Positions 5,898 to 53,375 are shown, counted from the first letter of the stretch. The stretch is DNA of 64,000 bases from an uncultured Propionivibrio sp. (GCA_938040985.1 CALHZD010000095.1:447-64446); one strand, 5' to 3'. Notes: generated by a model from the sequence alone, not told the origin. Numbers and translations are program-made.

Positions 5898-7163
5898 ATG
5901 GCGCAAATACTGGTGGTTGATGATGAAATGGGCATCCGTGAGCTGCTCTCGGAGATTCTGGCCGACGAGGGGCATAACGTGACGCTGGCAGAGAATGCCG
6001 CCGCCGCGCGCAGCGTCCGCGCCGAAAAGCGTCCGGATCTTGTTTTGCTCGACATCTGGATGCCCGATACCGATGGTATTTCGCTGCTCAAGGAATGGTC
6101 ATCCGCCGGTCTGCTGACAATGCCGGTCATCATGATGTCCGGACATGGCACCATCGATTCGGCGGTGGAAGCGACGCGGGTCGGCGCCGTTGATTTTCTG
6201 GAAAAACCAATCGCCTTGCAGAAACTGCTGGCGACCGTCAAAAAAGCGCTCAAGCACGATGTGTCGCCCAACCGGCCGCCACTGACGCTCGAAGCCTTTG
6301 CCCGCTCCTCCCTGCTCAAGGATTTCCGGCGGCGGCTTGAGCAGGCGTCCGGAAAAACCTCCGTGCTCCTGCTCAAAGGGGCCTGCGGCAGCATGGCCGA
6401 AATCTGCGCGCGCACGCTGCATGCGCCGAAAACGCCGTGGCTTGACCTGTCCTCGTCGAGCGCGCCGCTGACGCAGGAAATGCTGGAGAACGCCAGCGGC
6501 GGCCTTCTTTTCATCGCCGACCTGATGCTGCTGGGCAAGTTGCAGCAGAAGAATCTGAGCTTTGCGCTGGAGCGGCTGGAAAAATACCACCTGCAACTGG
6601 TCGCGGCGCTGGCGCGCCCGCTGTCCGCGCTGACCGAAGCCGGCTGGGACGCAGCGCTGGTTGCCCGCTTGGGCGAAGTCTGGCTGGGACTGCCGCCGCT
6701 GGCCGGCCATACGGACGAAGTGCCGGAAATCGCCACGCTGCTGCTCACCCATATGGTTGAACGCAATGAGGTGCCCCCCCGCACATTTTCCAGCGGCGCG
6801 CTCAATGCGCTGCGCCTGCACCGCTGGCAGGGCGACTGGGTCGAACTGCTGGCGACCGTGCGCAATCTCGCCTTGTCGGCGCTGGATGAAGAAATCACGC
6901 AGAATGACGTGGAGCCGCTGTTGCAGCGCGAAGCGGGCGAGGCGCCGGAGCCGCTGCCCATCATGCCGCTGCTCGATCAACCGCTGCGCGAGGCGCGCGA
7001 GGCCTTTGAACGCCTGTATTTCGAGCATAACCTGAAAATTGAGAACGGCAACATGACGCGCGTCGCCGAGCGCACCGGCCTGGAGCGCACGCATCTGTAC
7101 CGCAAGCTCAAGCAGCTCGGCCTGAACCCGGGGCGGCGCAACGAGGAGGCGCAGGAGGCGTAA
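5898..7163 (+). CDS. NtrX-like response regulator (REC + degenerate AAA+ sigma54-activator-like domain + Fis-type HTH)
   Basis: REC domain with LVLLDIWMPDTDG; C-terminal HTH NMTRVAERTGLERTHLYRKLKQLG. The central domain lacks a recognisable Walker A GxxGxGK and a GAFTGA loop. Confidence 0.85.
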   Translation: MAQILVVDDEMGIRELLSEILADEGHNVTLAENAAAARSVRAEKRPDLVLLDIWMPDTDGISLLKEWSSAGLLTMPVIMMSGHGTIDSAVEATRVGAVDFLEKPIALQKLLATVKKALKHDVSPNRPPLTLEAFARSSLLKDFRRRLEQASGKTSVLLLKGACGSMAEICARTLHAPKTPWLDLSSSSAPLTQEMLENASGGLLFIADLMLLGKLQQKNLSFALERLEKYHLQLVAALARPLSALTEAGWDAALVARLGEVWLGLPPLAGHTDEVPEIATLLLTHMVERNEVPPRTFSSGALNALRLHRWQGDWVELLATVRNLALSALDEEITQNDVEPLLQREAGEAPEPLPIMPLLDQPLREAREAFERLYFEHNLKIENGNMTRVAERTGLERTHLYRKLKQLGLNPGRRNEEAQEA

Positions 7164-7226
7164 TTTCACGGAATAGCCGCGTAGCGGTTCCGGAGCGCCG
7201 GAAAATGTGTTGGGAGGGAACGATCC

Positions 7227-7610
7227 ATGAATCTGGAAAAAGTGGTTTTCGGTTTTGTCATCATCCTGGCGTGTACGCTCAATTTTGGCTTTTTCGTCGG
7301 CGGGATCGACAACATTCATGTACATGACGCCGGCCATCTGTTCGGCGCCGTCGTCGTTAACCTGATTGCGCTGATCATGAAATTCGGCGATCGCACGCAC
7401 CTGGGCGCCACGCACCTGGCCACCAGCCTGGTAGCCATGCTGCAATTGCTGGCGGCCTCGCTCGTCTGGATGTGGCACGTCAATATCCAGCATCTGGCAA
7501 TGACCGGCGAAACCATGTCGAGCATTGTCTCGCTGAGCGGCGGCGCGCTGCTCGCCAATGCCATCTCGGTCATTCTTCTGGTCAGCGAAACCCTGTACCA
7601 GTCGCGCTGA
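7227..7610 (+). CDS. Small integral membrane protein (about 4 TM), function unknown
   Basis: 127-aa hydrophobic ORF with typical codon usage, 12 nt upstream of the channel gene and probably co-transcribed with it. Confidence 0.6.
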   Translation: MNLEKVVFGFVIILACTLNFGFFVGGIDNIHVHDAGHLFGAVVVNLIALIMKFGDRTHLGATHLATSLVAMLQLLAASLVWMWHVNIQHLAMTGETMSSIVSLSGGALLANAISVILLVSETLYQSR

Positions 7611-7622
7611 TCCGGCGGGCGC

Positions 7623-9500
7623 ATGAACGAAATTTCTTTCGTCATCCTGCGGCGTTTGCGCCGCCCGCTCATTGCGCTGGTCATCGCCTATGCGGTTTCC
7701 GTGTGGGGGATGGTGGTCATTCCCGGCATCGATGAACATGGCCGGCCCGATCATCTGAGTTTCTTCCATGCCCTGTACATCGTCAGCTATACCGCGACGA
7801 CCATCGGCTTCGGCGAAATTCCCCATCAGTTTACCGACCTGCAACGCGCCTGGATCATCGTTTGCATCTACCTGTGCGTCGTGGCCTGGGCCTATACGCT
7901 CGGCAGCGTCTTCCACCTCTCGCAGGATCCCACCTTTCGCCGGGCGATCAGCCGCCGGCGCTTCATGATCCGCGTGCAGCGCCTACAGACGCCGTTCGTC
8001 CTGATTGCCGGTTATGGCCAGAGCGGCATCATGCTGGCGCGCATGCTTGATCGCATGGGCTACCGCATCGTCATCATCGAACAGCGGCACGAACGCGCCT
8101 CGCGCATCGAGATCGATGAATTTGAGCGGCGCCCGATCTTCTGGGACGGCGACGCCCGCCTGCCCGACGTGCTGGTCGATGCCGGCGTGACGCATCGCCA
8201 CTGCATGGCGATGGTGGCGATGGCCGGCAACGACGAGACCAACCAGTCGGTCGCCATCGGCGGTACGGTGCTTAATCCCTCGCTGCGCATCATCGCCCGC
8301 GTGCATACGCCGATGGCGCAGGCAAACCTGAAGTCTTTCCGCAACATCGAGCTGATCAATCCGTACGAAACGTTTGCCAGCAATATACGTCTCGACATGG
8401 GGTCGGCGACAAAGCTGCGCGCCATCGAATGGCTGTCCGGACTGCCGGGCGGCGAATGCCCCGAATCGCTAAATCTGCCGAAAGGATACTGGGTCGTCTG
8501 CGGGTCGGGCGCCTTCTCGCTCTATGTGGTCGCGGCGCTCGAACAGGCGGGCGTCAGCTATTCGCTCGTCAACATCGATACGGCGCACAAAACCGAGGAC
8601 GATCTGGTTCGGCTGTCGAGCTTGCAGGAGATGGAAGACGATGAATTACACCAGGCCGGCATCGAAAGAGCCGTCGGCCTGGTGGCCGGCACCGACTCCG
8701 TCGCCGTTAACCTGGCGCTGATCAACCGCGCCCGTCTGGTCAATGCCAATCTCTATGTGGCGATTCGCCAAACGCATGTCGTCAATGCCAGCCTGGTGGA
8801 CGCTTCGATGGCCAATCTGCGCTTCGTCAAGGCCGATGTGGTCGCCCACAAAGCGCGGCAGCTGCTGACCTCGCCGCTGCTGATTCGCTATCTGCGCCAT
8901 CTTGAGTGCGATGACGATACGCTGGCGCAGCGCACGATCGAACTGTTGCAAACGCAAGTTGGCGAAAAAGTGCCGTTCATGTGGGGATTCGACTGCTTTG
9001 CTTCCTATGCCGGCTTGCGCGATGCGCTGTCGCCGGAAATTGATCCGCCGCTGTCGATTGCCGACCTGCTCTCGCATCCGACAACGCCTGCCGAGCGCCT
9101 GCCCGCCTTCGCCTTGCTGTTGCTGCGCCACCAGACGGAAATTCCCCTGCCGCCGGAAGATACCGTGCTGCGCTCCGGCGATCGTATCCTGTTCGCCGGC
9201 CGGCGCGGCGTGGCCGCCTTGCAGCGCCGCTTCCAGTTCGAGCCCGGCTTGCTGGAATTTGTCCGGACCGGCGTTGAAGCGCCGCGCAGCTGGCTGTTCT
9301 GCTATTTCCGTTCGGCGAAAAAGCGGCGGCTTCGGCGGGAACGCCTGCAACAACGTCTTGCCGCCGCACGGCGCGTCAGTGCTGAAAGCGCTGAAAATCT
9401 TGAAGAAGCATCCGACGAGTCCAATGACGCCGGCCCTGCCGATGAGAATCGCCGCAGCGACGGCGCGGACTCTTCCGAGCGGAGCGCACACGATCGCTGA
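7623..9500 (+). CDS. Potassium-channel-like protein with pore loop and RCK/TrkA-N type cytoplasmic domains
   Basis: Two TM segments flank a pore signature YTATTIGFGEIP. This is followed by a Rossmann-like FVLIAGYGQSGIMLAR (GxGxxG) and a second VVCGSGAFS domain. Arg/Glu-rich C-terminal tail. Confidence 0.8.
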   Translation: MNEISFVILRRLRRPLIALVIAYAVSVWGMVVIPGIDEHGRPDHLSFFHALYIVSYTATTIGFGEIPHQFTDLQRAWIIVCIYLCVVAWAYTLGSVFHLSQDPTFRRAISRRRFMIRVQRLQTPFVLIAGYGQSGIMLARMLDRMGYRIVIIEQRHERASRIEIDEFERRPIFWDGDARLPDVLVDAGVTHRHCMAMVAMAGNDETNQSVAIGGTVLNPSLRIIARVHTPMAQANLKSFRNIELINPYETFASNIRLDMGSATKLRAIEWLSGLPGGECPESLNLPKGYWVVCGSGAFSLYVVAALEQAGVSYSLVNIDTAHKTEDDLVRLSSLQEMEDDELHQAGIERAVGLVAGTDSVAVNLALINRARLVNANLYVAIRQTHVVNASLVDASMANLRFVKADVVAHKARQLLTSPLLIRYLRHLECDDDTLAQRTIELLQTQVGEKVPFMWGFDCFASYAGLRDALSPEIDPPLSIADLLSHPTTPAERLPAFALLLLRHQTEIPLPPEDTVLRSGDRILFAGRRGVAALQRRFQFEPGLLEFVRTGVEAPRSWLFCYFRSAKKRRLRRERLQQRLAAARRVSAESAENLEEASDESNDAGPADENRRSDGADSSERSAHDR

Positions 9501-38040: not shown

Positions 38041-39624
38041 TTGGTAGGGCACACGTGCCGGAATAACAAAGGCAAGACCGTGATACTTGATCTGTTTACG
38101 CCACGCCCCATACATCAACTATGTGATGCCGCGGAGTTGAAGCGGACGCTGGGTGCATTGCTGGCTGGCGAGGCTTTTAAGGCGGTTGAAGAAATCTATG
38201 GCTGGTTTGAATCGCTGCATCGTGCGGAAGGCGTGCGGCCGATGCAGTTGTTCGATATTGTGCGCCAGCTCGACGAGGTCGGTTATCACAAGATACGTCG
38301 GCTGACGCGGGATTACTTGCATTCCGCGCGCCTGTCGAAAGGCGAAGAACGCCGGTTATGGTCGATGTGCTTCAATTACTGGGGCGAGTTGACCAGCCTT
38401 TATGCTTATTGCGCCGAGCAGCTTCGCCCCGCTTTGCAGGACAAGGCGGATAAGTCAGAGCAGGCGGGCGAGTCGCTTAAATCCATCATGCCGCTGTTGC
38501 TGTCTCGTCAGATGGCGGCGCGGACGAACCAGCTGCGATGGATGGTTTATAGCTATTCTGTGATTGGCGAGGATCTTTGGCGCGGGTTGGGGCATGCATT
38601 CTCGCGTGCCGTTGCGGACGGCTTCGCCAATGAGCCGGTACTGCTGTATCCGGGCATGAATCAGACGACGAGCGTGACGCGGGAGTATCTGCATCTGCTG
38701 GTGCTTTCGGCGTCCTCGGCGGATAGTCTGATGCCTTTTGAGATCGATCTGGCGGATCGGCTGATCGGCCATCTGTTACCGCATTTCGTTCTTTCGGAAA
38801 CTTTCCAGAAAGACAGTGTGTATTGGGTCGATATCGCCGAAGGCAAGCCGCCAACCCGCCTGGCGCGTGAGCCTGCCGCACTGACGCCGACATTGCGCTT
38901 CTTTTCGCCTGGCCGGGCGCATCAGGCGTTAAGCCAGCTCATTCAGCGTGTCGGTCAGGGGGAGGTGCCTGAGGAGTTAAATCTGGGCGGCAATTATGCG
39001 GCTGATATCGTTTTGCCGGTGATGCAGCATTTGGCCTTGTATTGGGCGCCCGAGCCGCCATTGCGTCAACATCCGCGCCATTCGGTCAAGGCGCGCATTG
39101 CTGCGCTGCAGGGGTTTGAGGATTGCTTTACGCTGTTCTCCGGCGAAATTGCGCGTTTCGGCAAGGAACAGACCGCGGCCGTCTGGGTTGTCGAAAACGT
39201 CAGCCTCGGCGGTTTTCTGGCCTCGGCGGATATTGCCGCGGAAGGGCTAAAGATCGGCACCTTGCTTGGCTTGCAGCCGGAAGGCAGCGAGAATTGGGTG
39301 CTCGGCATCGTCCGCCGTTACAGCAAGGAGACGACGACGCAGGCCAGCGTCGGTATCCAGGCGCTGTCACGGCAGGCGTGGAGCGTCAAATTACGTCCCG
39401 GCGGCAATGGGTTTTCGCCGCACAACGCCATCCCAGGTATTTGTCTGGAAGAACATGCGGGCGAAAGTGAGATCCGGATCGTCGTTCCCTCGGGGTGTTT
39501 CGACGCACGCGAGACGATCGAGTTCGTCCATGAAAATCGGCACTACATGCTCACGCCCATTGCATTGGAAGAAGTCGGCGATGATTTTGAGATCGCCCGC
39601 TATCGATTCACCGTGTTTTCCTGA
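38041..39624 (+). CDS. Large cytoplasmic protein with a C-terminal canonical PilZ domain (predicted c-di-GMP receptor)
   Basis: C-terminal RQHPRHS (RxxxR) followed ~40 aa later by ENVSLGGF ([D/N]xSxxG). I do not recognise the ~330-aa N-terminal region. The start is uncertain (alternative GTG ~38080). Confidence 0.7.
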   Translation: MVGHTCRNNKGKTVILDLFTPRPIHQLCDAAELKRTLGALLAGEAFKAVEEIYGWFESLHRAEGVRPMQLFDIVRQLDEVGYHKIRRLTRDYLHSARLSKGEERRLWSMCFNYWGELTSLYAYCAEQLRPALQDKADKSEQAGESLKSIMPLLLSRQMAARTNQLRWMVYSYSVIGEDLWRGLGHAFSRAVADGFANEPVLLYPGMNQTTSVTREYLHLLVLSASSADSLMPFEIDLADRLIGHLLPHFVLSETFQKDSVYWVDIAEGKPPTRLAREPAALTPTLRFFSPGRAHQALSQLIQRVGQGEVPEELNLGGNYAADIVLPVMQHLALYWAPEPPLRQHPRHSVKARIAALQGFEDCFTLFSGEIARFGKEQTAAVWVVENVSLGGFLASADIAAEGLKIGTLLGLQPEGSENWVLGIVRRYSKETTTQASVGIQALSRQAWSVKLRPGGNGFSPHNAIPGICLEEHAGESEIRIVVPSGCFDARETIEFVHENRHYMLTPIALEEVGDDFEIARYRFTVFS

Positions 39625-41983: not shown

Positions 41984-43600
41984 TCAGTTTGCGTCGGGCG
42001 CGCCAAGTTGCCAGCGCTCATTGTCACCATGGCGCTCGATGAGAGACTGTGGCGTGAATGGCAGCGGCAGCAATGCAGAGTCGGCGCCGTTATAAAGGCG
42101 GCAACGCAGGACGCGCGCCAATGCGTTGGTCGGCAGAATTATCTGAGATTCGTTTCCCGATCCGGTCAGCAACAGTGCCGGGTATCGGAAAGTTGCGTTT
42201 GAGATTTTTTCCGTGATTTCCACTGTCAAGGGCGAAATTTTTCCGGCCAGGAAATACGCACCGACCATAATCTGGCCGTCTTGCGCCGACAGGCGAATGA
42301 CGCTTGCTAACTGCAGCTCGGCATCCGGCGTCTGACGAATACCGAGCAGATCGCCGCAGGCCAGGCGCTTTCCTGGCCGATTCACGGCGCGCTGCAAATT
42401 CAGCGTTGTCGTTGTGTCCGCCGAGAGTGCGCCCTGCCAGGTTTCGAAAACGATCGGCGTGAGGTTTTCGGGATCGGCAATGTGTCCGAAAATGGCCAAC
42501 CGTTCGGCCTTGATGCGTGCGACGGAGGTTTCCGGCTGGTTTTCCTGAGTGCTGGTGCCGCCGATGAGACGGTAAATGTCTGTCAACGTGCAGAGTATTT
42601 CTACTGGTTGCATTGCCGTTGCGGCGGCGCAGGATGGCGTGAGCACAGGCGCGTACAGACGCGCGCCCAGTTTCCCCAGCAGGTCGATGGCGACTTCGGA
42701 CGTTACGAGCTTGCCCAGGCGGAGATCTTCCGGCGAAGCGCCGCCTTTCAGCGCCTTAATGCGCTTTCCGATTTTGCGGAAGATGGCGTCAAATGAAATC
42801 TGGCGCTGCGTTGCGCTGCCTTTATTGTCGCGTGCGGAATCCTGAGGGAGAAATAGATCGAGGATAACGCTGTACGCATGATTATTGAAAGGCGTATCTG
42901 CCGGCTCCTGTACAGTAACCAGTTCTCGCCAGCGGGAAAGCCACTGGAGGACGGCGAGCAGGTGAACGTGCCGCAAGCTATAGGGATCGGCCAAGTGTGT
43001 CAGTATCGCCATGCCGTACTGGCCGGTCAGCGTTGATTCGGCTGTTTCATTGGGTAGCGGATCGCGGACGAATTCGCTGAGCGCCTGCAATTTTTCGGCC
43101 GCCAGATAGATGGCGTGCAGTTCTTTCCAGAAATGATCGCCCAGCGCGCTGCCGGCACTGTAGCAGCACAATTGTTCCATGCGCAGGCTGGTGATGGCCC
43201 GGTGCGCGATCTTTCCGGCCAGACCGTTGAGGCCGGCTTCGCCTTCCAAACAGGCATTCAGGCAATATAAGTAACCCAGCGTGCAGCAGCGCCAGAGCCG
43301 GGAGGTAGCCAAAAAGACCGACTGCTCGTCAGAGGCAAGCGGCAATGGTTTGTTTTCAAAATGGCGGCGGCTTTCGGTGCCGATGGTAAATACCGTTCTG
43401 CGCAGTGCTTCCAGTGTCTTGAAGCGCTCCCGCGTGGGCAGGGCAAAGTGGTTAAAGGCATCGATCTCGCGCGTCAGCGCTTCAAGCATGGCCGGGACGT
43501 TAGCCTGAGGCTGCCTGGCAAGCCATTGGCTAGCGAGAAATGCATCGCGGAAGGCGACGGGCTGCTCGGTGCTGGTTTTCGGTAGTGAGAAACGAACCAT
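41984..43600 (-). CDS. Paralogue of 38041..39624 with a degenerate PilZ-like C-terminus
   Basis: Similar length and colinear patches: CGDLLGIRQTPDAELQLASVIRLS...VGAYFL versus GTLLGLQPEGSENWVLGIVRRYS...VGIQAL. The RxxxR / DxSxxG motifs are not conserved. Confidence 0.6.
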   Translation of the reverse strand: MVRFSLPKTSTEQPVAFRDAFLASQWLARQPQANVPAMLEALTREIDAFNHFALPTRERFKTLEALRRTVFTIGTESRRHFENKPLPLASDEQSVFLATSRLWRCCTLGYLYCLNACLEGEAGLNGLAGKIAHRAITSLRMEQLCCYSAGSALGDHFWKELHAIYLAAEKLQALSEFVRDPLPNETAESTLTGQYGMAILTHLADPYSLRHVHLLAVLQWLSRWRELVTVQEPADTPFNNHAYSVILDLFLPQDSARDNKGSATQRQISFDAIFRKIGKRIKALKGGASPEDLRLGKLVTSEVAIDLLGKLGARLYAPVLTPSCAAATAMQPVEILCTLTDIYRLIGGTSTQENQPETSVARIKAERLAIFGHIADPENLTPIVFETWQGALSADTTTTLNLQRAVNRPGKRLACGDLLGIRQTPDAELQLASVIRLSAQDGQIMVGAYFLAGKISPLTVEITEKISNATFRYPALLLTGSGNESQIILPTNALARVLRCRLYNGADSALLPLPFTPQSLIERHGDNERWQLGAPDAN

Positions 43601-47337: not shown

Positions 47338-47392
47338 CCGTCAAAGATAGAAAAAGGCGCCGCAGGACGCCTTGTTACGCGGGGACTTGGCA

Positions 47393-47653
47393 ATGAAAAA
47401 ATTTTTTTATGGCTTTTACTGGAGCGGAGTCTGGATCGGTATTTGTTTCCTTGCTTTTGCCGGCAGGTTATTTTCCCCGGGGGCGTTTTTGGCGCTTTTC
47501 TTTATCGCCCTTGTTCTGAGTTTGCCGTGGAATATCTTCGCCTGCCTGCTCGGGATTCTTCTCATGATGCTAATCCACCCGATAGGTGACTTTTTTCTGT
47601 TTTTGGGAGGCGGGGAAGGTGGGGCATTGGGCGCAATGATAGGGATTCATTAA
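47393..47653 (+). CDS. Small hydrophobic membrane protein, unknown function
   Basis: 86 aa with three hydrophobic segments and visibly lower GC than the flanking core genes. Confidence 0.45.
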   Translation: MKKFFYGFYWSGVWIGICFLAFAGRLFSPGAFLALFFIALVLSLPWNIFACLLGILLMMLIHPIGDFFLFLGGGEGGALGAMIGIH

Positions 47654-47867
47654 TTGCGATAGCCATTGGCCTGCATATCAATGGAATGTGGTTCATCAGC
47701 CATAGAAAAAAGAGGCAACAGCGCAGAATGGAAAAGGAACAAGAACAAGAACAGGCACGGCGGCAAGCGTAGGAAAAAACTTAAGAGCGGGTTTCCCTAG
47801 CCCGGCTGCTGGAATAGCGATTGCAGGTATCCGCTGATTGGTTTTCCATCGGTCGGCATTTTCATTT

Positions 47868-48480
47868 ATGGCAGCGAATCTTTGGCTGGCTTTTTTGACC
47901 GCCTCAGCTGCATTCGCCGTTTTACCGGGGACGGGCGCGGCATTGTCGATGGGCAACGGTCTGCGCTATACGGCTACCGGATGACCCTTCGCAGCATCGC
48001 CCGCTGGCACTGCGCGCTGGCGCCTGAGATTGGCGTCACCGTCGTGGATTTGGGCGGAGCTGACGGCATTTCCCGCACCATTCGATGCGCTTCGCCATTT
48101 AGGGCGCGCATCTGATCAGCAAAAAGCTGCTCCGTCTGAACGAGCATTGCCCAGGGACGTCATGCAAAACGTTGATCATCATTGCTTTTTATTTACGGAA
48201 TCCTTGGCTGAAGCTGTTGCCGGATCGAGTGGAAGACCAAACGGGTCTGGGGCGTCGATTCGTTGACATGGCGTCAAGGCATTGTGCGCAGAGGCTCAAG
48301 CCTGTCGGTCTCTGGCAGGCGCTGGCCAATCAGGTTAAAACATTGTGGAACATTGGCGTAACAAGCGGGAATATTCCGTATGCTCGGCAAAAAATGGATG
48401 GCGCATCCATCAGGTAGTACTGGCAGTTAGCCTTTGCCCTTGCATTGAGCCGCCTGGGCTGGCATAAACAGTCGGTGTAT
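47868..48480 (+). pseudogene. Possible degraded LysE/RhtB-family exporter gene
   Basis: ATG at 47868 opens MAANLWLAFLTASAAFAVLPGTGAALSMGNGLRY (LysE-type N-terminus) and stops after 38 codons. Downstream frames hold further LysE-like fragments (e.g. ...AELTAFPAPFDALRHLG...). No intact ORF of normal length exists. Confidence 0.35.
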
Positions 48481-48523
48481 CCGGTGACACATCTATTATT
48501 CATTTACCCCCAGGAGAGTTGCC

Positions 48524-49620: not shown

Positions 49621-49636
49621 TGGCACGGAGTGTGCT
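49621..49636 (+). promoter_or_regulatory. Candidate sigma54 (-24/-12) promoter for the 49.8-53.0 kb operon
   Basis: TGGCACG-GAGT-GTGCT versus consensus TGGCACG-N4-TTGCW. GG-to-GC spacing is correct, with one mismatch in the -12 element. An AT-rich tract lies immediately upstream at 49581..49620. Confidence 0.4.
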
Positions 49637-49810
49637 TTAACTCCTTCGGCAAAAGCCGTTTCGTGCGTGAAGCCGGTTTTCTGATGGTGCTGATTTCTGG
49701 CCTCGCGTTTCATGGTTATCCCGTGAATAGGCGGGAGAGACTTCCGGCAGATGGTACTTGGGAATTTTCCCGACATGTTTTCCGCCGGATATAAGGAAAG
49801 GAGAATCAGA

Positions 49811-50155
49811 ATGAGCCTTCTCAAAAAACTCGCGCTGGCCGGTATTTTTTCTTCGTTTGCAATGGGCGCTTACGCGGGCGACATCGGCGATACGGCCGGC
49901 GCGATTTCCAGCGTGGCCTCGATACAAGGAAATGTTGCCGTTGGCGTTAATACCAAGGAGACAACGATCACGTCGCAAGCCTCGGGTGGTGGATCGGTTT
50001 CCAATGCGGGTTTAGGCGTGGTCGATGCCAAAGCACGTGGCGGAAAGAGCATCAATGCCGCAGTGGGCGTCAATACCGGTACGGCAAATATCAGTTCGAC
50101 GGCTCGAGATGGCGCAACGTCTAACGCCGGTCTGGCGGTGGTTCGTTCGCAATAA
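49811..50155 (+). CDS. Secreted 92-aa (mature) protein made of two tandem ~31-aa Asn/Gly/Ser/Thr-rich repeats; candidate fibre subunit
   Basis: RBS AGGAG. Signal peptide MSLLKKLALAGIFSSFAMGAYA/GD. Repeats are NVAVGVNTKETTITSQASGGGSVSNAGLGVV and NAAVGVNTGTANISSTARDGATSNAGLAVV. Confidence 0.75.
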   Translation: MSLLKKLALAGIFSSFAMGAYAGDIGDTAGAISSVASIQGNVAVGVNTKETTITSQASGGGSVSNAGLGVVDAKARGGKSINAAVGVNTGTANISSTARDGATSNAGLAVVRSQ

Positions 50156-50315
50156 GCTGCGCCTTGTCGTAAGTCTGACCGTATTCGTCCGGCCAGCGGC
50201 ATGACGCTCGACGCCCGTTGGCCGTCTGGCCGGATGCAAATGCGGTCAAGGCGGCCAATGGGCGCGAGCGATTAACCGATCAGTATGGATAACGATTCCT
50301 TGCCGGAGATAACGC

Positions 50316-50699
50316 ATGTTTCATGAACCAAAGAATGCACGCCGCTCGTTGTCGGGTTTTCTGACGTGCCTGCTGATGTTGGGCGGCGGGCTTGAGGTGG
50401 CTGCCTATGCGGCTGGGGCGGCCCATGTGGCTGGGCGCGCCGACAGTGTTGCCAAGCAGGGCGCTTCCGTCGTGGGTTCCCGTGTGTTCATCGATGGCGT
50501 TGAAGTCGATCCATCCGTTGAGCGTTACATCTCGCCGGCTTCCGGGGATGTGTACCGTATCCAGCGTAATGGCGACGCGGTTGCCGTGGTGCTTGAGCGC
50601 AGCGGGCAAAAAAACGGCGTGACGCGGATCGAATCGCACGCTTCCGGGCGTGGCACGACGGCGAACGCCGGGCAGGTGGTGATTACGACCGGGCAGTGA
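50316..50699 (+). CDS. Secreted protein ending in one copy of the same repeat motif
   Basis: RBS GGAGA and a signal-like N-terminus. The C-terminus RIESHASGRGTTANAGQVVITTGQ parallels NISSTARDGATSNAGLAVVRSQ of the preceding gene. Confidence 0.65.
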   Translation: MFHEPKNARRSLSGFLTCLLMLGGGLEVAAYAAGAAHVAGRADSVAKQGASVVGSRVFIDGVEVDPSVERYISPASGDVYRIQRNGDAVAVVLERSGQKNGVTRIESHASGRGTTANAGQVVITTGQ

Positions 50700-50827
50700 A
50701 GACAATGAATTATTAGACGCCATGGCGTATCTAAGAGTCAGATACGAGTTGGTGGCTTGCTAGCGGGTTGCGAGGTTTTATTGTCGATTAGATAGAATGC
50801 GGAATGAAAACATTGAAAGGAGGCGCA

Positions 50828-51589
50828 ATGAATCGTCGAGAATTGAGTCGAAAAGTTTATGCCCTACAAGAAGGGCAGTGGACGCGCATGGAAGCTTTCT
50901 TTCTGTCGTTTTCCTTAGGGTTCCTTTTGGCATTTTTATGTGCGCTCATGGCGCCTTCGCGAGCAATGGCCGGTGATATTGCGGGCGATGCGTCATCGGC
51001 CAATCGGCAGCAGGTTTTAAACCAGAACGGAATGGTTTCTGGCAAAGTGACCGAAACGGCGGATAGCGTCATCATTGATGGCGCGACTTTTGTTTCCAGC
51101 GGAAATGATCAGCCGGTCGTCAAAGTCGATGCGGATACCCGGAAAAAGGTCATTCTGCGCAACGTTAAGATCATTAGCAACAACCAGACGATTTCGGATC
51201 TGAACGACACGCACAAGGGCACGGCCGGCCTTGTCGCGGTCGACAATAGCCTCTCGAAGTCCAAGGTAGTCATGAGGAATGTCCGTGTCGTGGCGCACAA
51301 CGCCAATGTGAGCAGCGTCAGCGAGGAACGCGATGGCTGCGCCGGGCTGGTGTGCAGCAAGGGCGGGCGTTACGACCAGACGCAGTCCGTTTCGACAGCC
51401 GCAGTGGGGCGGACGAATATTTCATCGGTGCAGGGCGCGCGCCCGGATTACCGCAAGGTCGCCGCCACCCATAACACGCGCTATGGTACGCAGCGCACGG
51501 CGGCGGCCGCTTCGGCCTCCAGCGTTTCGCCTGTGACGGCGACGCAGCGCACACGGCCGGATTACCGCAAACTGCCGCAAGCGAACTGA
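50828..51589 (+). CDS. Larger secreted/anchored protein with two or three copies of the repeat and a duplicated RPDYRK C-terminal motif
   Basis: RBS AGGAGG 5 nt before the ATG at 50828. Hydrophobic segment ends ...SRAMA/GDIAGD. Repeats are RNVKIISNNQTISDLNDTHKGTAGLVAV and RNVRVVAHNANVSSVSEERDGCAGLVCS. Confidence 0.65.
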   Translation: MNRRELSRKVYALQEGQWTRMEAFFLSFSLGFLLAFLCALMAPSRAMAGDIAGDASSANRQQVLNQNGMVSGKVTETADSVIIDGATFVSSGNDQPVVKVDADTRKKVILRNVKIISNNQTISDLNDTHKGTAGLVAVDNSLSKSKVVMRNVRVVAHNANVSSVSEERDGCAGLVCSKGGRYDQTQSVSTAAVGRTNISSVQGARPDYRKVAATHNTRYGTQRTAAAASASSVSPVTATQRTRPDYRKLPQAN

Positions 51590-51635
51590 CTAACCGGGCC
51601 TTCAGGGGCGCCTTTCAACAATAAGAATCGATTTT

Positions 51636-52583
51636 ATGAAAACCAGACACCCACGTTTATTGCCGCTTGCAGCTGCTCTGTTGCTGGGCGGCTGCGCCAC
51701 CGTTGACCTGAAAACGCCGCGCGCTGACGATTACAGTGATGCCAGCAAGGAGAAGATTCGCGGCATCGCCGAGCTGCGTTCAAAAACGCTAGCCGACAAC
51801 GAAACCTACTTCACGGATCACCTGCGCTGCATCGGTAAGGGCAAACTGCTCAACGACCTGTCCTTAAGAGTCAGCGTCGCGCCCATTTACGACAAGACGG
51901 CCAAGGTTTTTCCCAACGGATCGACGGCGATTTCGGAAATGGTGCTGAACGCCCTTTCCTATGTGAAGGGCCTGCACATCGTCGATACGCCCTTTGGCGA
52001 CATCACCGAATCGCGCGTCAACCTGCTCAGCGACCGCTACGTCTTTCTCGCCAAGGGGCTGAAAGACAACATCGTCCCGATCTCCAACAAGATCGCCCCA
52101 CTGCCCTATGGCATCCTCTTCCCCAGCCAGATCAGCATTTCCGGCGCGCTCGTCCAGTATGACGAGGGGACGGAAACGGTCTCGCCGGAAATTGGGGTGG
52201 ATATTGATGCGTTTTCCGGCAAGCGTATGGTTGAAACTATTTCCGTCGGCCTGCACCTGCGCCTGATCAACGCTAACGACGGCGAGATTCTCAGCAACAG
52301 CGCGCTGGGCAAGCGCGGCAGCGTGCTGCTTTCCAACAAGGTTTACAAGATCAAGACTAGTGGCAGCTATTTCCGCCTGATCAGCGCTAAGCAGTACGGC
52401 TTGGACGTATCCGTGTCCGTGGATGACCCCAAACACTACGTCATTCAGGAAATGGTCGAGCGGGGCGTTGCCGAACTGCTCTCGGTTTTGCCAAGCGATG
52501 TCGTGTGCCCGGAAAAGAAGAACGATGCTGCTGTAAATGCCCAGGAAACAGCGAGCGTAGCGACCCCCTCAGGGTCTGAATGA
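51636..52583 (+). CDS. CsgG/HfaB-family outer-membrane secretion-channel lipoprotein
   Basis: Lipobox LLLGGC. Colinear with my recollection of E. coli CsgG in three stretches: RVSVAPIYDKT...STAISEMVLNAL; ISISGALVQYDEG...ISVGLHLRLINANDGEILSNS; YFRLIS...DDPKHYVIQEMVERGVAELL. Confidence 0.75.
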   Translation: MKTRHPRLLPLAAALLLGGCATVDLKTPRADDYSDASKEKIRGIAELRSKTLADNETYFTDHLRCIGKGKLLNDLSLRVSVAPIYDKTAKVFPNGSTAISEMVLNALSYVKGLHIVDTPFGDITESRVNLLSDRYVFLAKGLKDNIVPISNKIAPLPYGILFPSQISISGALVQYDEGTETVSPEIGVDIDAFSGKRMVETISVGLHLRLINANDGEILSNSALGKRGSVLLSNKVYKIKTSGSYFRLISAKQYGLDVSVSVDDPKHYVIQEMVERGVAELLSVLPSDVVCPEKKNDAAVNAQETASVATPSGSE

Positions 52584-52610
52584 AAAGCTCAGTGAGAGGT
52601 GATGCTTATT

Positions 52611-53018
52611 ATGCGTAAACAATACTGGATAGCGTTGAGCGTTTTTTTGGGGGCACTGTTGCAGGCCCCACTGTTGATGGCCGCCGATGAAGTGCTTGTC
52701 CCTTGGGTGCCGGCGGTAATTGATTCTGATGAACAGGCGGAAACGGAGCGGCGCGCACGCGCAAGCGCTTTGGAGAATCTGCACGCACCCGAAGAAAACA
52801 GCGAAGAAGCATGGCTGAAAAAATTTAATCCTGAATTGGAAGATGCGGCGACGGAAGAAACGTCACAAACGGGTTCCCGCTATTCTTCTACAGCCAAAGC
52901 ATCCACTAAGGATGTAGCAGGCAAATCAAGAAAACGGAAAAGTACGGGCGCCGAAAAGAAATCGCTACAAAACACGCGCGACTCAGGTTCCGGGATTCAC
53001 GGCGCTGGGGGACGCTAA
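52611..53018 (+). CDS. Secreted, highly charged low-complexity protein (acidic N-half, Lys/Ser-rich C-half)
   Basis: Signal peptide ...LLQAPLLMA/ADE. No recognisable domain. Last gene before the terminator. Confidence 0.55.
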   Translation: MRKQYWIALSVFLGALLQAPLLMAADEVLVPWVPAVIDSDEQAETERRARASALENLHAPEENSEEAWLKKFNPELEDAATEETSQTGSRYSSTAKASTKDVAGKSRKRKSTGAEKKSLQNTRDSGSGIHGAGGR

Positions 53019-53133
53019 CTGAGCGAAATACAAAGTGGCAGCGTGATGAAGCGCCATGGGAGATACATAAACTGAATGTGGGGCGGGTAGTCTCATAATA
53101 TTTTATGGTTTCCGCTAGGGGCGGCGATGCCTT

Positions 53134-53171
53134 GTCCCGTATCTCCAAAAAAGATACGGGACATTTTTTTG
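53134..53171 (+). terminator. Rho-independent terminator of the 49.8-53.0 kb operon
   Basis: Perfect 11-bp stem GTCCCGTATCT / AGATACGGGAC with a 7-nt loop, followed by ATTTTTTTG. Confidence 0.8.
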
Positions 53172-53375
53172 TGCGATAAAAGTTCAGAAGATATTGCGCA
53201 TGATTGCTCACTTAGCGCAGTTCGAAAGATTTGTAACGTAAGTAGGCAGAATATGGCTCGATATCATAAATAAAATGCAATGCCCCCTTTTGTGTTTGGC
53301 TATAATCCTTACAGTGTTGGCGCCGTATGGATTTTTTATTGGCACGACCGTTGTTCTCAATATCTGGAGAAAATT

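Follow-up and report, generated by a model that had tools for sequence, protein, structure and literature searches.

A five-gene operon around a CsgG/HfaB-like lipoprotein

In this study, we examined a five-gene operon within a 64 kb stretch of DNA from an uncultured Propionivibrio sp. (GCA_938040985.1 CALHZD010000095.1:447-64446), which is referred to here as the window. The genes, numbered g1 to g5, all lie on the plus strand at 49811-53018, and an earlier note on this DNA had read them as a CsgG/HfaB-type channel lipoprotein paired with an undescribed family of secreted substrates. This pairing is supported by family hidden Markov models (HMMs), by a Foldseek search and by the co-occurrence of the genes across loci, and we consider it probable that this self-contained cassette exports and assembles surface polymers or anchors in a type-VIII-like manner (CsgG/HfaB-type).

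The five open reading frames (ORFs) were recovered where the earlier note had placed them, on the same strand between a sigma54-like site at 49621 and a terminator (Table 1). A Shine-Dalgarno sequence is recognizable before g1, g2, g3 and g5, and the start of g3 is fixed by an AGGAGG located 5 nt ahead of the ATG at 50828. Export signals are present in all five products: each begins with a positively charged n-region, which is followed by a hydrophobic core and a cleavage site of the AxA type, as judged by a heuristic check of these three elements and not by SignalP.

Table 1. Genes and other features of the operon, in window coordinates
Feature	Position	Strand	Description
Sigma54-type promoter match TGGCACGGAGTGTGCT	49621..49636	+	-24 GG / -12 GC; 190 bp 5' of g1
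5' leader, ~175 nt	49637..49810	+	blocks conserved among three related loci
g1	49811-50155	+	114 aa ORF
Two stable stem-loops right after g1 stop	50165-50201 and 50205-50270 (~27-bp stem)	+	putative attenuator/mRNA stabilizer
g2	50316-50699	+	127 aa ORF
g3	50828-51589	+	253 aa ORF
g4	51636-52583	+	315 aa ORF
g5	52611-53018	+	135 aa ORF
Intrinsic terminator	53133..53173	+	12-bp stem (6 GC pairs) at 53133-53163, then TTTTTTT

The putative channel family of g4

The product of g4 had been described as a lipobox protein colinear with CsgG, and both parts of this description hold. The lipobox is LLGG followed by the cysteine (MKTRHPRLLPLAAALLLGG, then C), with an alanine at +2 by the heuristic check, and the predicted lipidated residue Cys20 is, together with Cys65 and Cys291, invariant across 25 homologues. 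Against the CsgG and HfaB models the match is weak for g4 alone, which reaches 19.9 bits with Pfam CsgG (PF03783; cut-off 20.8 bits, E 4.8e-4), and clear at the level of the family, where 16 of the 25 orthologues match Pfam CsgG at E<=0.01 (best E 1.2e-8) and 22 of the 25 members match the NCBIfam HfaB model weakly (best E 4.2e-9). The HfaB equivalog NF037935, with a cut-off of 300 bits, gives g4 19 bits over residues 49-107 only, while the CsgG equivalog PRK15184 (cut-off 505 bits) does not match the window g4 and matches 3 of the 25 family members weakly (best E 1.4e-3). Scores with the HfaB model are graded, from 199 bits for P0089 through 81 for P0077 and 39 for P0071 down to g4 itself, and hhalign aligns the g4 family with the HfaB-like P0089 over 250 columns at 98.4% probability (E 9.6e-15), including an N-terminal LRC(I/V)G motif. 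Judged by these profile comparisons, g4 is nearer to HfaB than to the curli CsgG and is an equivalog of neither.

An exhaustive HMMER search of 1.84 billion representatives with the g4 family profile returned 91 matches at E<=1e-3, of which 35 were at E<=1e-30, and the channel family comprises 35 clusters at 50% identity among these representatives. Ten of the weaker matches, with E between 1e-26 and 1e-8, were checked and all ten pass the Pfam CsgG gathering score (28-86 bits); the homology of g4 with CsgG is therefore transitive and solid. A phmmer search of the PDB sequences with the orthologue P0007 gave CsgG as the five best matches (E 0.03), with a colinear alignment; the g4 family profile found no CsgG among the PDB sequences.

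The AlphaFold model of g4, with a predicted local distance difference test (pLDDT) value of 73.6, folds like CsgG, as had been anticipated. It contains two long, 14-residue beta-hairpins (strands 166-179/199-212 and 229-240/246-262) at the positions of the CsgG transmembrane hairpins TM1 and TM2, and the top 20 Foldseek matches are all CsgG, with 4uv2, 6l7a and 4uv3 at E 1.3e-9 to 4e-7 and a probability of 1.0. The template-modelling (TM) scores are modest, 0.39-0.58, because the hairpins of the monomer model take other positions than in the solved structures. The protein has an N-terminal helical extension, and the sequence PIYDKT.KVFP.GSTA in the region of the constriction loop, which includes an aromatic residue and a proline, is highly conserved. 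Profiles and model together indicate that g4 is a very divergent member of the CsgG/HfaB superfamily, and by analogy with CsgG we regard it as a putative outer-membrane secretion channel.

Some relatives of g4 are considerably longer than the window protein. P0024-P0028 and about half of P0047-P0067 measure 435-504 aa, and in about half of the close relatives the N-terminal RC(L/I)S motif is separated from the CsgG-like core by an insertion of 130-190 aa that is rich in Lys, Glu and Gln and looks like a coiled coil (alignment columns ~105-280). We know of no insertion of this kind described for CsgG or HfaB.

The exported partner proteins

The earlier note had also proposed that the substrate family is undescribed, and the small proteins indeed match no characterized family. 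No Pfam or NCBIfam match was found for g1, g2, g3 or g5 (for g5, CsgE and CsgF included), nor did any of the four match a PDB family; the g1 and g3 profiles gave nothing meaningful among PDB sequences, and the g1-like proteins of other loci have no Pfam match. The homologues of g1 and those of g3 each form only 9 clusters in 5.8 billion proteins, all of them unnamed.

Mature g1 has about 92 aa, of which 76% are G, A, S, T, N or V, and contains no F, Y, W, C, P, M or H at all, a composition typical of a secretion substrate. It consists of two repeats of about 41 aa with the pattern ..GN.AVGVN......I.S.......SNAGLAVV.., and the score of this internal duplication (z 7.1) was reached by none of 2000 shuffles. 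In the AlphaFold model, which was built from 8 sequences, each repeat forms one beta-hairpin; the pLDDT of 49 is too low for a fold search, and a beta-solenoid or amyloid fold is therefore not shown. Immediately behind the g1 stop codon, two stem-loops (Table 1) fold with a minimum free energy of -81 kcal/mol (z -5.5), and none of 200 shuffles folds as well. The position of this hairpin region, not its sequence, is conserved in L006, L011, L001, L002, L004 and L008, and in L004 it takes the form of a classic terminator with a U run. Partial terminators or stabilizers after the first, major-subunit gene are typical of fimbrial operons that overproduce one structural subunit, and by this parallel the hairpin points to g1 as an abundant product. 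We therefore regard g1 as the putative major subunit.

The g2 protein starts with an N-terminal domain of its own (VFIDGVEV.P..ERY.SP..GD.YRI) and ends with one repeat of the g1 type. This assignment comes from an HMM built from 22 g1 repeats and run alongside 1450 composition-matched decoys: the C-termini of g2 orthologues scored 18.9, 18.4, 9.3 and 8.8 bits, the first value being that of the window g2 (residues 101-125), against 8.1 bits for the best decoy. Since the scores of g2 exceed those of all decoys, g2 carries one g1-type repeat. The gene is missing from L007, L009 and the P0018 contig, and is therefore dispensable to the core of the system.

A single repeat shared by genes 1-3, as the earlier note had it, thus stands for g1 and g2 and fails for g3. 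The g1-repeat HMM gives at most 4.1 bits on any g3, and hhalign aligns only the signal-peptide cleavage region of g1 and g3, at 2% probability; on these values we dropped the idea of one repeat across all three proteins. What g1 and g3 have in common is a short xAGL(V/A)(V/C) motif and a period of about 39-41 aa. In several orthologues cysteines flank this motif, as in CAGLVC (g3), in ACAGVLC, FCTEIIC and NCAATKC (distant g2) and in SNCAGALCF (L014). L014, a remote relative of the cassette, encodes at 1-282 and 2099-2644 small exported Q/N/G-rich repeat proteins with curlin-like QGG.(N)N motifs, both of which end in SNC(A/S)GA(L)CF. These endings suggest that the C-terminal SN.AGL.V or CxxxC motif is the feature kept across otherwise unrelated partner proteins.

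The g3 protein has a beta-rich N-terminal part, two tandem repeats of about 38 aa (V.L.NV.I.S.N....S......G.AGLV; z 14.7), a near-invariant CAGLVC and a basic tail with two RPDYRK motifs. Every locus with readable sequence contains a g3 homologue. In the remote loci L014 and L016, the homologue scores 23.9 and 54 bits, respectively, with the g3 HMM and lies directly upstream of the channel gene. Because the pair is kept even in these two loci, g3 and g4 form the evolutionary core of the cassette; g1, g2 and g5 are more variable across loci. By sequence comparison it is thus g3, not g1, that is the universally conserved partner of the channel.

The small size of the exported products could also be taken to mean that they are secreted effectors, bacteriocin-like or signalling, which are released through g4 and do not polymerize. 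Several orthologues contain CxxxxC motifs, and g3 has a faint match to the CCPGW putative bacteriocin family (E 0.047); at 13.7 bits against a cut-off of 80, this match is far under threshold. The cassette contains no immunity, processing or ABC-exporter gene, and no CsgG-family channel is known to export toxins. As the tandem strand-turn-strand repeats, the Asn/Gly-rich composition and the presence of three partner types also fit structural proteins better, we consider a role as effectors highly improbable.

The g5 protein is, as previously described, secreted, charged and of low complexity, with both acidic and basic residues and an export signal. Its N-terminal peptide is DEVLVPWVPAVIDSDEQAETERR, and the N-terminal motif VPW.P..VIDSDEQAETERR is conserved only in the betaproteobacterial clade. 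The position of a g5-like gene is kept in all loci that extend past g4.

Distribution of the cassette

Another 12 loci or contigs contain the cassette, each time among unrelated flanking genes, and its recurrence in such different surroundings places it beyond chance. The layout of g1-, g2- and g3-like genes, channel gene and g5-like gene is repeated in L001, L002/3, L004/5, L006, L008 and L010; the cassette also occurs in L011-13 and, without g2, in the three loci named above. Co-occurrence of the repeat proteins with the channel gene, which the earlier note had suggested as a check, holds in both directions: it is seen from g4 homologues, and the g1 homologue P0031, taken as the starting point, led to the same cassette in a related organism (L011-13), where it again follows the Amdase gene at the corresponding place in the chromosome.

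The cassette is nevertheless very rare, and all statements on its function are inference from sequence. A scan of 185,579 species-representative genomes, pattern-based and thus missing distant members, gave two loci, one in Dentiradicibacter hellwigii Wk13 (92% g4 identity) and one in a river Pseudomonadota metagenome-assembled genome. D. hellwigii is the type species of its genus, obtained in culture from a human root-canal infection (PMC11881992), and the window accordingly comes from an oral, Dentiradicibacter-like member of the Rhodocyclaceae. Literature searches found no paper on the cassette.

Among the neighbours of the cassette in other organisms are further surface-structure genes, located directly downstream in the P0018 contig (3578-4237) and in L014 (2680-3336); these encode a protein with an Lcl_C (Legionella collagen-like protein C-terminal) domain and a type IV pilin. 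The downstream neighbours differ among the window, L006 and L011-13, and in L006, the D. hellwigii Wk13 locus, transposase-like ORFs, judged as such by translation, flank the cassette on both sides (2170-2688 and 6602-8053).

Transcription signals and flanking regions

The promoter-like sequence TGGCAC-N5-GTGCT at 49621-49636 is the sole match to TGGCAC-N5-KTGCW within the window. Alone this motif is weak, with at least one match in 23 of 100 shuffles. Its elements TGGCA and GTGCTT are kept in L006 (D. hellwigii) and in the more divergent L011, where the N5 spacer and the flanks vary, and by phylogenetic footprinting this retention speaks, if modestly, for a sigma54 promoter within the Dentiradicibacter-like clade. 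As the distant loci contain no exact match to the motif, the promoter type is supported only within this clade. No gene for an enhancer-binding protein was found in the neighbourhood of the operon in the window. In AT-rich distant cassettes, a gene for an XRE-family helix-turn-helix regulator stands divergently upstream in place of the sigma54-type promoter (minus strand; L004/L005 4197-4674, L009 707-1117 and P0018 contig 354-755).

The leader of about 175 nt between this site and g1 could be regulatory. It shares sequence blocks with L006 (3034-3207) and L011 (~6826-7000), for example GGCA.AAGCCGTT.CGT.CGTGAAGCCGG. An Rfam scan of leader and operon revealed no riboswitch or known RNA, the sole match being a chance snoRNA, and RNAalifold gave weak covariation support for the leader from three sequences, a number too small to establish a structure. 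At the other end of the operon, the clean terminator that had been noted at about 53134 is present as a 12-bp stem with a T run.

The flanks consist of housekeeping genes, namely lgt, ilvD and an Amdase-family gene upstream and a TRAP (tripartite ATP-independent periplasmic) transporter and glyA downstream. We considered a mobile island and rejected it, as the GC content of the operon does not stand out from that of its flanks and the upstream Lgt, IlvD and Amdase synteny is shared with L011-13. The approximately 1.2 kb between ilvD and the Amdase gene (47338-48523) contain short ORFs only; LysE, cytochrome c and LysR genes occupy the syntenic position in L011-13, and a deletion or rearrangement may have occurred immediately ahead of the cassette neighbourhood. 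Further away, two long ORFs of 527 and 538 aa (38041-39624, plus strand; 41984-43600, minus strand) have no Pfam match at E<=1e-5.

Proposed mechanism

According to the model that we favour, all five products would cross the inner membrane via Sec, and g4 would be lipidated and sorted to the outer membrane by the Lol system. There it would oligomerize, by analogy with CsgG, into a beta-barrel channel to which each protomer contributes two hairpins, with a short conserved constriction loop of the type K-V-F/Y-P-x-G-S-T-A, and would move the small, aromatic-poor proteins rich in Gly, Ala, Ser, Thr, Asn and Val in unfolded form to the cell surface. Overproduced owing to the hairpin after its gene, g1 would be the main building block, its two strand-turn-strand repeats of about 41 aa allowing the molecules to stack into a polymer. 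The g3 protein, whose gene always adjoins that of the channel, may be the partner nearest to the cell, serving as nucleator or anchor and kept in place by a disulfide-stapled repeat together with the basic RPDYRK tail. With its single g1-type repeat, g2 may work as adaptor or cap, and g5 may be an accessory factor that resides in the periplasm or is associated with the channel. The end product would be a fibre or anchor on the cell surface, similar to curli or to the holdfast anchor formed by the Caulobacter Hfa proteins. It is possible, and we propose this tentatively, that the cassette specifies a new class of surface polymer, in which g1 is exported through an HfaB-like channel and stacked head-to-tail as a cross-beta or beta-solenoid fibre, which the disulfide-stapled g3 templates and anchors, the single-repeat g2 caps or adapts, and g5 assists as a new accessory factor of the channel.

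A system strictly of the holdfast-anchor type would differ from the model above only in the nature of the final product, which would be a short, outer-membrane-associated multimeric anchor tethering an exopolysaccharide or adhesin, with no free fibres in the matrix. The position of g4 nearer to HfaB is in agreement with such an anchor, with 22 of 25 family members matching the HfaB model as opposed to 3 of 25 matching the CsgG model, and so are the graded series of HfaB-model scores that leads from P0089 to g4 and the LRC(I/V)G cysteine motif common with the HfaB-like protein. Several small exported partners per channel are also seen in Hfa (bioRxiv 10.1101/2022.07.20.500906), and the basic RPDYRK tail of g3 could bind an acidic polymer or the envelope. 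However, none of the partners matches HfaA or HfaD, whereas those of L015 do, and no polysaccharide-synthesis genes were seen among the large flanking ORFs or in the other loci. Moreover, a large excess of one product, as suggested by the hairpin behind g1, fits a polymer subunit better than a stoichiometric anchor, and we regard a strict anchor as unlikely.

Several points weigh against the assignment of the cassette as an export and assembly system. Support so far comes from sequence analysis, in which g4 narrowly misses the Pfam gathering score and remains far short of the cut-offs of the HfaB and CsgG equivalog models. Its constriction loop is four residues shorter than that of Escherichia coli CsgG (KVFPGGSTA as compared with QFKPYPASNFSTA), and the Tyr51/Asn55/Phe56 triad of the latter is not conserved as such in the g4 family. 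The g1 model is unreliable at its pLDDT of 49, and there is no significant sequence relationship between g1 and g3, by which a strict analogy with CsgA/CsgB-style templating is weakened. Furthermore, FlgT, PelC, LptE and GNA1162 appear lower in the Foldseek list of g4, at E 1e-5 to 1e-3, and some ring lipoproteins that play no part in protein secretion also have the CsgG fold.

In another reading, with which these lower Foldseek matches agree, g4 would be a non-secretory, periplasm-facing ring lipoprotein of the CsgG-like fold, as in PelC, FlgT or the CsgG/DUF4810/GNA1162 clusters, and the small proteins would be periplasmic or envelope components of a structural or transport complex and not secreted substrates. 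There is a precedent in Acinetobacter, where a CsgG-family gene without curli partners affects poly-N-acetylglucosamine (PNAG) and pili and secretes no amyloid (bioRxiv 10.1101/2021.05.19.444899); g5, which is disordered and Pro/Glu-rich, could span the periplasm, and the coiled-coil-like insertion of 130-190 aa in some relatives of g4 could likewise be periplasmic. However, CsgG stands three to six orders of magnitude ahead of FlgT, PelC, LptE and GNA1162 in Foldseek E, and g4 has both segments of the CsgG barrel hairpins, conserved and of equal length, which PelC and GNA1162 lack. In addition, no partner is a lipoprotein or a DUF4810/DUF799 match, and the lack of aromatic residues, Cys and Pro in g1 is unusual for a folded periplasmic protein. 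We therefore think that a non-secretory ring is quite improbable, and retain export through g4 followed by assembly at the surface as the preferred explanation.

Significance

To our knowledge, only two substrate sets have been tied experimentally to CsgG-family channels, namely curli CsgA/CsgB and the Caulobacter Hfa proteins. If the cassette does specify a new class of surface polymer, the proteins described here would represent a third type VIII substrate lineage that is independent of curlin and of the Hfa proteins. A third, sequence-unrelated set with g3 as its conserved core partner would show how one simple and energy-independent type of outer-membrane channel came to serve different surface polymers. 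CsgG is in use for nanopore engineering, and the g4 family would offer natural pore variants, with a shortened constriction loop, an N-terminal extension with a conserved cysteine pair and a coiled-coil insertion, which are of interest for secretion mechanics as well as for such engineering. As the host lineage includes the root-canal isolate D. hellwigii (PMC11881992), the cassette is a candidate biofilm or adhesion factor in a culturable organism. It should be of interest to specialists in secretion and functional amyloids and can be tested in a cultured organism.

Comparison with known systems

Three known systems come close to the cassette, namely curli, Hfa and CsgG/DUF4810/DUF799; it is a member of none of them, since the partner proteins by which each is defined were searched for and are absent. 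The CsgG/DUF4810/DUF799 (GNA1162) cluster, found in Acinetobacter (D1G37_12595-12605), Neisseria and Vibrio, is likewise a CsgG-family gene set without curli subunits; it has been linked to extracellular-matrix phenotypes and is largely uncharacterized (bioRxiv 10.1101/2021.05.19.444899). The partners in that cluster are two lipoproteins, whereas here they are non-lipoprotein repeat proteins; no DUF4810 or DUF799 partner lipoprotein was found in the operon, where g4 is the sole lipobox protein and none of its partners gives a Pfam match. That cluster is also widespread, in contrast to the extreme rarity of the cassette.

In curli (csgBAC/csgDEFG; type VIII secretion), CsgG-family channels export unfolded amyloid-type subunits. 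The cassette resembles this system in its channel with a CsgG fold, for which CsgG is the top Foldseek match, in combining a small subunit made of repeats with another repeat protein, perhaps a nucleator, and with exported accessory proteins, and in the Gly/Asn/Ser-rich strand-turn-strand repeat composition of the substrate. Unlike curlin, which has five repeats of about 22 aa, the substrate here has two of about 40 aa; the genes form one operon instead of two divergent ones, and the constriction loop of g4 is shorter by four residues. A canonical curli operon was rejected, as the curlin repeat (PF07012) gave no Pfam match at E<=1 for g1, g2 or g3 and neither CsgE nor CsgF was found. Pfam and NCBIfam searches of the operon likewise detected no CsgC, CsgH or CsgD, which agrees with the earlier statement that CsgE/CsgF/CsgD- and HfaA/HfaD-like sequences are absent and that the repeat is not that of curlin.

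A further comparison is with the Caulobacter Hfa system, in which HfaB is needed for the surface display of the amyloid-like HfaA, HfaD and HfaE, and the Hfa proteins form multimers at the surface that resist sodium dodecyl sulfate (PMC6707917; bioRxiv 10.1101/2022.07.20.500906). The two systems differ in that g4 reaches 19 bits where the HfaB equivalog asks for 300, and in that g1, g2, g3 and g5 have no match to HfaA (NF037934) or HfaD (PF27277). L015 is a genuine Hfa-like locus whose partners do match the HfaA/HfaD models, and the g3 and g1-repeat HMMs found no match among them. In the cassette, three partners lie upstream and one downstream of the channel gene, and there are no holdfast-type polysaccharide genes nearby, with neither holdfast polysaccharide (hfs) nor polar adhesin genes among the large ORFs in 32-63 kb of the window. 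Its hosts are Beta- and other Proteobacteria, not Caulobacterales. Both systems, on the other hand, are built around an outer-membrane lipoprotein of the CsgG/HfaB family, with the g4 family closest to the HfaB branch, and both combine one such lipoprotein with several small repeat-rich exported proteins, which in Hfa depend on the lipoprotein to reach the surface and would do so here. Both are also compact operons with partner genes on either side of the channel gene, and g4 and the HfaB-like protein share the N-terminal LRC(I/V)G cysteine motif.

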